Below, piece after piece: positions 7,378-10,570 of a stretch of 64,000 nt of DNA (its first letter is position 1; each line of letters begins with the position of its first letter). The stretch is from a virus (taxonomy: Duplodnaviria; Caudoviricetes): the IMG/VR virus record IMGVR_UViG_3300025679_000005; one strand, 5' to 3'. The position numbers and the translations under genes are program-made. Under the pieces are notes generated by a model. It was not told where the DNA came from, ran no database searches, and saw only the letters and a program-made list of their open reading frames with translations.

Positions 7378-8148
7378 GTCTCAGCGTACTGAGCAATCAA
7401 AAGGCTTCGCAGGCTGGGTCTGTCGCGAGCTGGACCAATACGGTGACGTGCTTGTCTCAGCGAACTGAGCAATCAAAAGGTTTCGCAGGATCCAGAGCTA
7501 CCAGGCGCTACAACGGAAGTGGCATCAGTCTCAGCGTACTGAGCAATCAAAAGGTTTCGCAGGAGGCGGTAGTCCTTGATGCTATCGTCGGCAAAGTCTC
7601 GTCTCAGCGTACTGAGCAATCAAAAGGTTTCGCAGGGTCGGGGCGGCGGGGGCAGATTCATCAGACCAAGTACGTCTCAGCGTACTGAGCAATCAAAAGG
7701 TTTCGCAGGAGTGGCCCATAGACCTGGTTCCCTTGGGCGTCCCTCTTGTCTCAGCGTACTGAGCAATCAAAAGGTTTCGCAGGGCCAGGGGCCGGCGGGC
7801 CGTTGTACTGGCCCGGACGAGTCTCAGCGTACTGAGCAATCAAAAGGTTTCGCAGGTTCCTTAGTGGGACTCTTAGAGGATCCTATAAGTAAGAGTCTCA
7901 GCGTACTGAGCAATCAAAAGGTTTCGCAGGGTCGGGTGTTGGAGTCGATGAGGTTGGCTTAGCGTACGTCTCAGCGTACTGAGCAATCAAAAGGTTTCGC
8001 AGGCCCCGACTCCACGGGATCATGTTGGGGATCGATCCTGTCTCAGCGTACTGAGCAATCAAAAGGTTTCGCAGGGCGTCGTGTTCATCGATCACAACTA
8101 CAGGGATCCCCTGTCTCAGCGTACTGAGCAATCAAAAGGTTTCGCAGG
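7378..8148 (-). CRISPR. CRISPR array B (CasPhi): 11 repeats of 36 nt (CCTGCGAAACCTTTTGATTGCTCAGTACGCTGAGAC on minus strand), 10 spacers of 36-40 nt
   Basis: Repeats start at 7378, 7454, 7528, 7601, 7674, 7748, 7821, 7895, 7968, 8040, 8113; the two variant repeats (7378, 7454) mark the trailer end. Confidence 0.99.
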
Positions 8149-8239
8149 TCGCACGTCAGAAACAGTGAATTTTCAAAGACCTACCGAATGCTTTGCGAGC
8201 GGTTCGGTAAATTAGAGATCAGCAGGGGGTATTACACCG

Positions 8240-10570
8240 TCATTCAGCGGCTTCAGCATCTTCTTCTGGCTTAAAAGCAGCTTTGCGAGCGCCTACGCTC
8301 TTTTTGGCATCACCGGACCGCTCGCTTTCTGGCTTAGGCATAGGCTTGCCGGTCAGAGCGACTCGTTCAATGTTGTCCGTCGCGATCTCAAGGTCAGCAT
8401 GAGCTACAAAGCCGCACTTCTGGCATGCGAACCGTTCTCCGTCCCGATTGGCCTTGTCACAGTGCCCACATTTGGTACAGGTGATGCTGGTCCGGTGGGG
8501 GGTTACTTCAATGGTTGGGACCCCCTTGTGGGCCCCCAATTCGGTCAAGGACTTGTGGAAGGCTTGCATGAACCAACGATTCTCCCTCTTCTTGATGAAG
8601 AAAGCGTCCCATCCGCCATCAGCCCATTTTCCGTTCCCATGCATCATCTTGATATTGAGGTCTTCGAAGGCCATAACGACGACCTCACATTGAGAGGATT
8701 TTGCTGCCTTGTGTCGCAATTGATTGAGAATGCGCTTCGTCAGTTCTTGTTTCCAGGTTGAGAGTCGGAGGTACTCGGGAGAAGTCCTCTGAAGGTCCCA
8801 TTGTGCCTCCCGATATGCTTCGGCAGCCTCCGGACTCACTTCTATTCGAACACCCTCAGTTCCCTTGAATTTGATGTCTCGTCGCAACATCTCGGGCCTA
8901 TTTTTGGGTTTGAGGGTAGCTACTTTCCGGTCGCCGCCCTTCTCAAGATAGGCCGTAGCAAGGAATTCTGTGTATGGAGTCATCTTGTCCCAAGCGATCA
9001 TCTCCGGATTGAGCCCTAGTGCGGCGCACACCCTAGCCTTACAGAGAGCTGGGGTGTCGTTTTTAGCCCTTAGGATCTCTGACTTATGCTCTGGAGATAG
9101 TCGCTCAACAGCCAAATTGGCCAACTTGTCCCGTAGACGATCACTGGCCACTCGATATCTAGCGATCTCTTTCCCATCGCTGCTGTCATTCGACAGTAGC
9201 TCTCGCAATAATGTCTCGTGGGATAGCTGGCCGTCGCTCAATTGGGTTACCCTAGAGACTTTGGCGGCAATAGGATTGGTTTGACCCAGGTCAATTGATA
9301 CTAGAACCACAGGCCCCGATTTTGTCAACTCGGACAGGATTTCAGGAGCGTTCTTTGTCTTCACCATTTTGGCAGAGCAAGCTTGACCCGCCTTGTAGAT
9401 AAAAGTGCAGACGCCCTGCCGCATGTCGATAGAGGGGTCCCCCGTGAACAGGCTTAGCAAGTCAGGGATCGTGGACTTTTCCTTCAGCAATTTCCGATAG
9501 CGAGCATTTCGCAGCAACCCTCGAATATCGATGATGACCCATTCGTCTTGGAAGCGCATCAATACAGGGATCGCACCTTTGAAGCGCCCCGATTGGATCT
9601 GATCTGTTCTCGAATTCTTCCGGTTTGGTGTTCCGGACCGTTTGGAGCACGTAGCCTTAGGCTTGTTAAGACTTGCCGAGTACCAATCTCGACGGCGCCT
9701 GTTCTTGCGACGATTGAGCAGAGGATGCTGCCACTCGGGCACATACCCCGGCTGTCCCTTTGGAATGGTCATGCGATCGTGAGGCAAGTAGTCCGTGAGG
9801 GCCTCAGCGGACTCTTTGGCAAGGCATCCGCTAGGTAACCCAATAAAGTCACTAGGGCAGGATTTGATCACTACTGCCTGATAGCCTGGAATCGTTTGGT
9901 TCACTCCCGGAGGATGAATCAAGTATCCTCGTTCATCATGGGCTTTCTCCTCCACGAAGGTAGCCTCTTCTCCTGCTTCCTTCCGGCGCTTCGTCTTCGA
10001 CAGATTCTTCTCGTTGCGGTTCTCAACCTTTTTGAGTACGCCCTCTCGAATGCTGATAGCCGATTTGATGAGGGCGTTCTGTGCCTGAGCGTGGAGGCTA
10101 GGGGCGTCCAGTCCCAACACTTCATAGAAGGCAGCTCGGGTTTCCTCATTGAGCTTGGATTTGCCATCAACTTCTAGGGAGGCTACCGCTTCGTTGAAGG
10201 CCGTCTCTGACAGACCATCTTGTTTGGGACGACCCTTGGTAGCGGGGATCCCGAAGATCTTCTCCTGGATTTGACGAGAAACTCGAACGAGGTCCCATTC
10301 GATAAAGGGCCTGCTTTGAGCAATTACGAAGGCTTTGGCGGGCGGTTTAACGTCCTTGAGCTTTGCCTGACCCTTGCCAGTCAGGTAGCTGATGACGGCT
10401 TCGGGTCCGCCATCTCTCAGCTTCTTGCCAGCAATCTTGTAATCCTGGGACTCAAATTTCAAGCCTGGGAAATGCGCCCGCAAAAGCAAAGACAATGGAG
10501 AAGGGGGTGTGGTTTTATTGCTCATGTGCTCTCTGGTCGAAACGGCCGTATTTGACATTTCTATTTGCAA
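8240..10570 (-). CDS. cas12j: CasPhi / Cas12j type V effector (start probably ATG 10558)
   Basis: About 770 aa; RuvC-I VSIDLGQTNP, RuvC-II AFEDLN, RuvC-III HADLEIA, Zn finger CTKC/CQKC; family-typical KGQPGYVPEWQ, DIRGLLRNAR, FTGDPSID, KRENRWF; adjacent array ending ATTGC..GAC. Confidence 0.95.
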   Translation of the reverse strand: MQIEMSNTAVSTREHMSNKTTPPSPLSLLLRAHFPGLKFESQDYKIAGKKLRDGGPEAVISYLTGKGQAKLKDVKPPAKAFVIAQSRPFIEWDLVRVSRQIQEKIFGIPATKGRPKQDGLSETAFNEAVASLEVDGKSKLNEETRAAFYEVLGLDAPSLHAQAQNALIKSAISIREGVLKKVENRNEKNLSKTKRRKEAGEEATFVEEKAHDERGYLIHPPGVNQTIPGYQAVVIKSCPSDFIGLPSGCLAKESAEALTDYLPHDRMTIPKGQPGYVPEWQHPLLNRRKNRRRRDWYSASLNKPKATCSKRSGTPNRKNSRTDQIQSGRFKGAIPVLMRFQDEWVIIDIRGLLRNARYRKLLKEKSTIPDLLSLFTGDPSIDMRQGVCTFIYKAGQACSAKMVKTKNAPEILSELTKSGPVVLVSIDLGQTNPIAAKVSRVTQLSDGQLSHETLLRELLSNDSSDGKEIARYRVASDRLRDKLANLAVERLSPEHKSEILRAKNDTPALCKARVCAALGLNPEMIAWDKMTPYTEFLATAYLEKGGDRKVATLKPKNRPEMLRRDIKFKGTEGVRIEVSPEAAEAYREAQWDLQRTSPEYLRLSTWKQELTKRILNQLRHKAAKSSQCEVVVMAFEDLNIKMMHGNGKWADGGWDAFFIKKRENRWFMQAFHKSLTELGAHKGVPTIEVTPHRTSITCTKCGHCDKANRDGERFACQKCGFVAHADLEIATDNIERVALTGKPMPKPESERSGDAKKSVGARKAAFKPEEDAEAAE

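Follow-up and report, generated by a model that had tools for sequence, protein, structure and literature searches.

A divergent CRISPR-CasΦ (Cas12j) locus on a large phage-like contig, with copies of its crRNA handle dispersed outside the array

The CasΦ (Cas12j) nucleases CasΦ-1, CasΦ-2 and CasΦ-3 of type V-J CRISPR systems use their RuvC site to process their own CRISPR RNA (crRNA) with no trans-activating crRNA (tracrRNA); they also make staggered cuts in double-stranded DNA (dsDNA) next to a T-rich protospacer-adjacent motif (PAM) (PMC8298400, PMC7162821). Cas12j3 contacts the handle of the crRNA at positions -18, -17, -2 and -1, and it cuts only when the hybrid is longer than 12 nucleotides (nt) (PMC8298400). 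Repeats that stand outside an array have been described in other CRISPR types: standalone repeats and crRNA-like RNAs (crlRNAs) are known in type I and type V-A loci (Shmakov et al., 10.1101/2023.03.03.530964), CreR is a crRNA-like regulatory mini-array (bioRxiv 10.1101/2023.03.10.532045), and RNA anti-CRISPRs (Racr), whose V-A examples inhibit Cas12a, are recognised by solitary repeat units that follow a promoter (PMC10651486). Here we analyse a stretch of 64,000 nt from the IMG/VR virus record IMGVR_UViG_3300025679_000005, called the window in what follows. Judged by its sequence, the window holds a genuine, complete type V-J CRISPR-Cas12j (CasΦ) locus, which is apparently intact and predicted to be nuclease-competent. 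Copies of the handle of its repeat were found at seven sites outside the array. As an overall explanation we consider it highly probable that this is a complete CasΦ locus with a putative nuclease, supplemented by dispersed handles through which CasΦ probably binds transcripts other than that of the array.

The effector is encoded by a single long minus-strand open reading frame (ORF), 8240-10570, which comprises 776 amino acids (aa) if counted from TTG. The gene caller used in two public assemblies and a comparison with the N-terminal residues of the closest homologue (MSKEKTPPS against MSNKTTPPS) concur in placing the start at ATG 10525, thus translation most likely begins there and the protein has 761 aa. 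A phmmer search against all PDB chains matched CasΦ-2 (7lys, E 2.1e-135, aligned query residues 23-766), Cas12j-SF05 (8iew, E 3.5e-131) and CasΦ-3 (7odf, E 3.4e-113), all three aligning with essentially the whole protein. In an alignment of 16 Cas12j homologues the RuvC acids D412, E621 and D711, the zinc-ribbon cysteines C683, C686, C701 and C704 (CxxC..CxxC) and the arginine motif GLLRN were unchanged (residue numbers refer to the 761-aa protein). The GLLRN motif appears to be the counterpart of R338, the strictly conserved handle-binding arginine of Cas12j3 (PMC8298400), as judged from conservation of the motif and not from a residue-by-residue alignment with 7odf. A first-pass annotation of the window, made from the sequence alone, had described a CasPhi (Cas12j) protein of about 770 aa with three RuvC acidic residues and a Zn finger, and both the description and the family assignment were borne out.

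Among 5.8 billion clustered proteins the closest relative is 58% identical and is the only close one; it is encoded on a 64-kb Joint Genome Institute (JGI) contig, which we call L001. The remaining homologues are 31-41% identical by BLASTP or in the alignment (Cas12j-SF05 36-37%), and no relative was found in the IMG/VR viral contigs. By this measure of identity the effector counts as an apparently new, divergent type V-J protein. No match to Cas1, Cas2 or Cas4 (Pfam) was found among the 97 ORFs of at least 70 aa in the window, which matched 19 Pfam families in total, nor in the pre-computed Pfam matches of the called genes within +/-10 kb, in agreement with the first-pass annotation, which had seen no cas1 or cas4 nearby.

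The CRISPR array begins 91 nt downstream of casΦ on the same strand, and its repeat reads CCTGCGAAACCTTTTGATTGCTCAGTACGCTGAGAC in crRNA sense. That the gene is followed by an array of 11 repeats had been reported from the first reading and holds. The two cas-distal repeats carry one change each; because the degenerate repeats are distal and a promoter-like motif stands at the cas-proximal end, the leader was placed on the cas side. When folded, the repeat forms a stem of 5 bp capped by a tetraloop, with AC after it, that is, a CasΦ-type 3' hairpin ending in GAC. The part that forms this hairpin, GATTGCTCAGTACGCTGAGAC (21 nt), is the crRNA handle, and the bases U -18, G -17, A -2 and C -1 are all present in it. 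Over six Cas12j loci 94% of the stem cells are paired, and two of the five pairs change on both sides in a compensatory manner (U-A to C-G and A-U to G-C). The CasΦ of L001 is 58% identical to the one studied here, yet the 21-nt handles are identical.

The ten spacers gave nothing beyond 15 nt exact when compared with the window and with 11 related loci, so the earlier remark that they have no match within the window stands (best 15 nt). The search of viral and plasmid databases that had been proposed for them was carried out on phage and plasmid collections, where blastn of the locus and of the array returned no match, and on IMG/VR viral contigs, where four spacer seeds of 22 nt (from 4 of the 10 spacers) had no match either; no target emerged.

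The motif CGGTGTA occurs 31 times in the window (e.g. at 13127, 14403, 21977, 38179 and 61700). According to our own reading of the contexts about 18 of the 31 copies are placed 8-14 nt upstream of an ATG, frequently in divergent palindromes, and because of this position we read the motif as a phage promoter or a start-associated signal. It is probably the promoter of this phage group, which would give very short leaders; it is also used in the related contigs L001, L007, L009 and L012. The copy at 8233-8239 is likely to be the promoter of the CRISPR array. The palindrome at 10580-10603 is likely a bidirectional promoter serving casΦ (-) on one side and, on the other side (+), the mini-array described below. 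The same palindrome stands upstream of cas12j in L001, where the other arm drives a protein gene. The motif also precedes a further array (array A, see below) and both mini-arrays of the window.

When the window was searched with the 21-nt handle, 18 matches were obtained, as against 0 in 100 shuffled sequences. Eleven of these belong to the array and seven lie outside it: 10609 and 10646 (+), 14495 and 14455 (-), and 7031-7066, 6142-6177 and 61371-61406 (-). Beyond the pair adjacent to casΦ there are thus five further copies in the window, which the first reading had overlooked. In the seven extra copies the handle has a single mismatch in 147 positions, while the 5' 15 nt of the repeat match at 49 of 105, hence the conserved portion of the repeat is the portion read by CasΦ.

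The two copies next to casΦ are exact inverted copies of the 3' part of the repeat (10609-10629, 21 nt; 10640-10666, 27 nt), situated 39-96 nt beyond the 5' end of the ORF. Because one arm of the CGGTGTA palindrome faces these inverted units from 20 nt away, we read them preferably as a mini-array with divergent transcription and not as a tracrRNA. The spacer between them starts with TGTGAGCCGC, there is no repeat after the 27-nt part, and no plus-strand ORF was found downstream of the mini-array. When TGTGAGCCGCCC was compared with the window, the best matches had 2 mismatches and no T-rich flank, and none was at the casΦ promoter. The guide at 14475 in the second mini-array matches 19458-19472 with 2 mismatches behind a T-run, the sole exception among results that were otherwise at chance level.

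Two lone repeats flank the gene of a XerD-like recombinase. One of them, 7031-7066, contains the last 11 codons and the stop codon of an orphan ORF (7034-7327), for which no family was found in Pfam or PHROGs and an Atlas search gave no telling match. The other is part of a 41-nt insert, around which an exact 10-nt duplication, TGAAATGACC, is found at 6183-6192 and 6132-6141. This lone repeat is nearly complete (6142-6177); its handle (6142-6162) has 1 mismatch and ends 4 nt before a second ATG, just after the recombinase stop. The duplication restores the recombinase stop and the start of the next gene. Insert and duplication together make 51 nt without a stop in frame, and the downstream protein can be read through them, as the gene caller does. 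By a simple expectation the chance of such a duplication is about 1e-4 per site. We found no flanking duplication of at least 7 nt at the other 20 lone units considered in this work, so that the duplication is an isolated instance (1 of 21). The insert has the look of a recent insertion. Cas12j3 leaves overhangs of 9-11 nt (PMC8298400); that the length of the duplication falls in this range hints that CasΦ cuts may seed insertions, which must be taken as a lead and not as evidence.

Lone handles are not confined to this window. Five other Cas12j loci (L001, L009, L010, L011 and L012) were each searched for the handle of their own array, and in four of the five, lone handles matching it were present (Table 1). 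Besides its lone repeat, L001 has a fragment consisting only of the 5' part of the repeat, past the end of the array. Two of the copies in L012 lie within genes: a complete 36-nt repeat is in frame in a Dam-type methyltransferase gene (L012:13245-13295, between KWAGGK and EPF..GGG), which sits after the response-regulator gene that follows the array, and an antisense handle (L012:9449-9469) is found in the RNase HII coding sequence, downstream of DEAG, just upstream of cas12j. The 158-aa genes that stand behind lone handles in L009 and L012 are unrelated to each other. A handle scan of JGI metagenome contigs yielded six contigs, all with single units or one pair, one of them behind CGGTGTA; the handle had no match in IMG/VR viral contigs. 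Over all loci 21 lone units were counted, of which 8 lie at most 27 nt before a start codon on the same strand; GGTGTA stands 8-20 nt upstream in 6 of the 21.

Two observations made in the course of these scans are recorded here. On a 54-kb metagenome contig a cluster of 7 tRNAs in 4 kb is preceded, about 90 nt upstream of its first gene, by a lone CasΦ-type handle (L004:1163-1347). Genome contigs scanned for the handle pattern gave one match, within a sigma-54-type regulator gene of a Desulfobulbus metagenome-assembled genome; it was rejected as a clue to the host, since a pattern like this in a database of that size should give about 2 matches by chance.

Relatives without CasΦ allow a comparison of the sites themselves. 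Orthologues of the XerD-like recombinase are present on two large contigs, L013 (72% identity) and L014 (61%), and these share with the window the 292-aa gene, the recombinase and the small membrane-like gene that follows it. In L013 the flanking genes are orthologous as well (292-aa gene 63%, 97-aa gene 46%), while the orphan ORF at the tail of the array has no homologue at the L013 locus. In place of the CasΦ island L013 and L014 carry other genes (e.g. an N6/N4 methyltransferase). L013 and L014 lack casΦ and an array, and at the orthologous gene junctions they have no handle, the only handle-like match in L013 being weak (5 mismatches in 21). The recombinase junctions were compared by eye and by protein orthology: the lone repeat upstream of the recombinase is missing from the orthologous site in both contigs, and in L013 the recombinase stop overlaps the next start (TGATG) without any insert, where the window has the 41-nt insert. 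Because the relatives keep the surrounding genes without casΦ, array or handle, we regard the CasΦ locus as an accessory island, set in a variable region that conserved genes border on both sides.

Table 1. Features of the CasΦ locus, handle copies elsewhere in the window and lone handles in other Cas12j loci
Feature	Coordinates	Strand	Remarks
CRISPR array	7378..8148	-	11 repeats (36 nt each) and 10 spacers (36-40 nt); minus strand gives crRNA sense
Array leader	8149..8232	-	with hairpin TACCGAA..TTCGGTA
CGGTGTA motif	8233..8239	-	immediately after casΦ stop codon; putative promoter of CRISPR array
casΦ (cas12j) gene	8240..10525	-	761 aa, ATG 10525; open frame reaches TTG 10570
Palindrome of two divergent CGGTGTA	10580..10603		arms 10582-10588 (+) and 10595-10601 (-)
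Mini-array beside casΦ	10609..10666	+	opposite orientation to main array; 21-nt handle, spacer of 10-16 nt, 27-nt 3' part of repeat
Second mini-array, putatively promoter-driven	14435..14517	-	CGGTGTA 14511-14517, handle, 19-nt spacer starting GGTGTAG, handle
Lone repeat	7031..7066	-	31 nt identical to last array repeat; ends 6 nt before ATG of XerD-like recombinase
Insert with lone repeat	6132..6192	-	41-nt insert at 6142-6182, flanked by 10-nt duplication
Lone repeat	61371..61406	-	33/36 nt; in gap between two small same-strand genes
XerD-like tyrosine recombinase	6185..7024	-	Pfam PF00589; lone repeats on both flanks
Orphan ORF	7034..7327	-	97 aa; between last array repeat and next lone repeat
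L001			one lone repeat
L009 (Cas12j-SF05 phage)			two lone handles; one behind CGGTGTA palindrome, 5 nt before ATG
L010			no lone handle (searched for its own handle)
L011			one lone handle, 2 nt before ATG; G-U-compatible stem change
L012			three lone handles; one behind CGGTGTA

On these grounds the following picture can be drawn. The casΦ gene would be transcribed from one arm of the palindromic phage promoter motif, and the array from a second copy of the motif directly after the casΦ stop codon. By analogy with CasΦ-1, -2 and -3, the protein would bind the 3' hairpin handle, use its only RuvC site to cut the pre-crRNA, no tracrRNA being needed, and, directed by guides composed of handle and spacer, cleave dsDNA next to a T-rich PAM, leaving staggered ends. 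Without Cas1, Cas2 or Cas4 the ten spacers would have been inherited or acquired by other means, and they would most likely be aimed at competing mobile elements that are not yet in the databases. The handle appears to have been copied to at least seven other places, mostly just behind a promoter motif or just before a start codon, and these positions suggest that a group of phage transcripts from outside the array is probably bound by CasΦ as well, either short-guide regulators or handle-led mRNAs. Where a handle is promoter-proximal, the transcript would begin with a ready-made handle or close to one. The guide of 10-16 nt encoded beside casΦ would be at or below the length at which Cas12j3 cuts, and because Cas12j3 needs a hybrid of more than 12 nt, binding without cutting is plausible for it. 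Handles that abut a start codon would let CasΦ bind or cut those mRNAs. It must be noted that this regulatory role is deduced from the anatomy of the lone handles and is unproven, no target of a pseudo-guide having been found. A bolder version, which we put forward tentatively as possible rather than probable, is that the handle is a dispersed, insertable cis-element that, set after a phage promoter, immediately ahead of a start codon or in frame within a gene, places phage transcripts under CasΦ binding or cutting or turns the 5' ends of genes into guides, so that CasΦ would be a regulator and processor as well as a weapon, and that CasΦ cuts may seed the insertions.

Several observations weigh against one or another part of this picture. 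No protospacer was found for any spacer in the searches described above, so no PAM or targets could be derived. Likewise, neither the short spacer of the casΦ-adjacent mini-array nor the sequences downstream of the lone handles yielded a target, and the genes behind the lone handles share no family in Pfam or PHROGs. The two L012 copies situated within coding sequence, one of them antisense, do not fit a simple 5'-leader model. Finally, the window contains no phage hallmark gene (capsid, terminase).

The most serious competitor is that the lone handles and mini-arrays are functionless scars of array recombination or cassette insertion around a plain CasΦ system. We regard this as rather unlikely, though it deserves to be kept in mind. 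The position of the locus in a variable island between conserved genes, beside a XerD-like recombinase, would suit such an origin, as would the discrete 41-nt insert with its 10-nt flanking duplication, the 5'-part-only fragment past the array end in L001 and the lack of a target or of a common downstream function; moreover, Shmakov et al. regard many lone repeats as spurious (10.1101/2023.03.03.530964). Decay, however, should spare neither part of the repeat, yet the handle is identical at 146 of 147 positions and the 5' part at about 47%. Nor would scars be expected to recur downstream of the promoter motif or at a distance of a few nt before a start codon, and in other phages the lone units match the handle of each phage's own array.

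It is also conceivable that the lone handles are Racr-like decoy RNAs, which soak up the CasΦ of rival phages or throttle that of the phage itself, and we consider this improbable. Lone repeats behind promoters are what such decoys look like in the V-A examples that inhibit Cas12a (PMC10651486), and cross-binding is plausible, as the CasΦ of L001, 58% identical, goes with the same 21-nt handle. Decoys identical to the phage's own handle would, however, inhibit its own system equally, and several of the units are fused to start codons or lie within coding sequence and are not free-standing small RNA genes.

The inverted copies upstream of casΦ call for a third alternative. The first-pass annotation had stated that there is no tracr-like anti-repeat nearby; this has to be revised, since the two exact inverted repeat parts at 10609-10629 and 10640-10666, read on the cas strand, are perfect anti-repeats. 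They could belong to a tracrRNA-like or antisense RNA that is transcribed from the cas strand and pairs with the crRNA repeats: on the minus strand they would pair without a mismatch with 21 and 27 nt of the repeat, and transcription reading through from the upstream operon would cross them. We think this very improbable. A promoter motif on the plus strand faces them, ending 20 nt upstream of the first copy, and the same layout recurs in the mini-array at 14435-14517 and in units of L007, L009 and L012. The characterised Cas12j enzymes need no tracrRNA (PMC8298400), the hairpin recognised by the protein would be lost on such pairing, and in L001, the closest relative, a protein gene occupies the place. 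A search of Rfam over 5500-15000 gave nothing at E <= 1.

That the protein is a transposon-type TnpB or a Cas12f-like nuclease and not a Cas12j, the outcome that the first-pass annotation had named as fatal to its assignment, can be dismissed with near certainty: the C-terminus does match the Pfam Cas12f1-like TNB domain (E 2.7e-10, the sole Pfam domain of the protein), the NCBIfam TnpB subfamily model NF040570 (E 9e-9) and Cas12f and TnpB chains of the PDB (residues ~665-750, E 1e-6 to 4e-10), but these matches span 55-120 residues only, the scores are below the cut-offs of the family models (35 bits against 100 for NF040570, 13 bits against 350-425 for the IS607 and IS200 TnpB models), all of the ~760 aa align to CasΦ structures, and the gene is followed by a CRISPR array and not by an insertion sequence (IS) end.

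Naming the system a minimal, phage-encoded one, as had been done before, needs some qualification. The word minimal is too strong in view of the handle copies and the two mini-arrays outside the array. The effector was located on contig k141_731965 (464,302 bp, from a peat metagenome) of the ENA assembly ERZ27294387 and on a contig of 465,854 bp. The contig is rich in orphan genes, and its gene order is common to other contigs of 190-475 kb; it can be called phage-like on the strength of its large size (464 kb), its gene content and this common gene order, whereas the absence of a hallmark gene from the window leaves that part of the description less secure. A search of sequencing runs for the stretch listed one DNA run, from a peat metagenome, and no RNA run.

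Other features of the window may be mentioned briefly. Array A (1534-2453) consists of five 36-nt repeats that end in a related long-loop hairpin (..GCTCAGGGGTTCCAGTACTGAGAC) and follows a 178-aa ORF, in which only the portion of a TnpB/Cas12-like protein comprising RuvC-II, zinc ribbon and RuvC-III is kept. We considered whether this ORF is a truncated close paralogue of casΦ and rejected the idea, the identity being only 26% over 128 aa of the CasΦ C-terminus. Partial repeats of array A are found at ~2418-2450 and, behind CGGTGTA, at ~935-965. Array C (18874-19351, +) has seven copies of an unrelated repeat of 36-37 nt; one of its spacers with a flanking base (19200-19239) equals 18648-18687 over 40 nt, inside the gene 18397-18825, and is thus a self-match. 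An IS4-like DDE transposase gene (Pfam DDE_Tnp_1, PHROG transposase) lies at 50734-52026 within the phage-like contig. A very long ORF of 2256 aa without a PHROG family match occupies 27263-34033 (-), and two tandem copies of a 40-nt unit (97% match) are found at 57213-57294.

Being divergent and apparently intact, and having a handle variant of its own, this Cas12j is useful raw material for the search for compact genome editors. The locus also indicates that a CasΦ system can be more than one gene and one array, since the handle is kept nearly base-perfect at promoter-proximal and start-codon-proximal sites. Lone handles are present here and in most of the other Cas12j loci examined, and there is no clear handle in CasΦ-less relatives with the same gene order. 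If CasΦ does bind these transcripts, phage CRISPR nucleases would gain a second job, the control of phage genes; a role of CRISPR in gene control has been demonstrated for type I and V-A systems of bacteria, not for V-J.

It is instructive to compare the locus with the systems that resemble it. With the TnpB proteins of IS200/IS605 and IS607 and with Cas12f the effector has the core of RuvC-II, zinc ribbon and RuvC-III in common; it differs from them in having no homology to them outside the last 60-120 residues, no transposon ends and a CRISPR array. The mini-array beside casΦ has the layout of CreR and the crlRNAs, two degenerate, repeat-like units around a short spacer next to the promoter of the effector gene. 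It differs from these in its spacer, for which neither the casΦ promoter nor the rest of the window yielded a partly complementary target flanked by a PAM, and in its carrier, which is a phage-like element with its own effector. Like Racr, the lone units are single repeats carried by a viral genome, and they often follow a promoter immediately. Unlike Racr, they copy the handle of the phage's own CasΦ and not a host repeat, and many of them abut start codons or fall inside genes.

The likeness to CasΦ-2/Cas12j2 (7lys, 7lyt, 7m5o), Cas12j-SF05 (8iew) and CasΦ-3/Cas12j3 (7odf) is of another order, as it amounts to full-length homology. The proteins are of similar size (761 aa here, 737-766 in the known ones) and have the RuvC triad, the zinc ribbon and the handle-binding GLLRN motif in common; the systems share a repeat of 36 nt whose 3' hairpin ends in GAC, lack adaptation genes and are found on very large phage-like contigs. 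Lone CasΦ handles or mini-arrays have not been described for type V-J in the literature we searched, and the terms 'V-J' and 'Cas12j' are absent from the text of Shmakov et al. (10.1101/2023.03.03.530964). Compared with the known CasΦ systems, whose characterised orthologues are at most 41% identical, the present one is set apart by the sequence of its effector, by its own handle variant with a TCAG/CTGA stem, and by the putatively promoter-driven mini-arrays and lone handles that accompany it.

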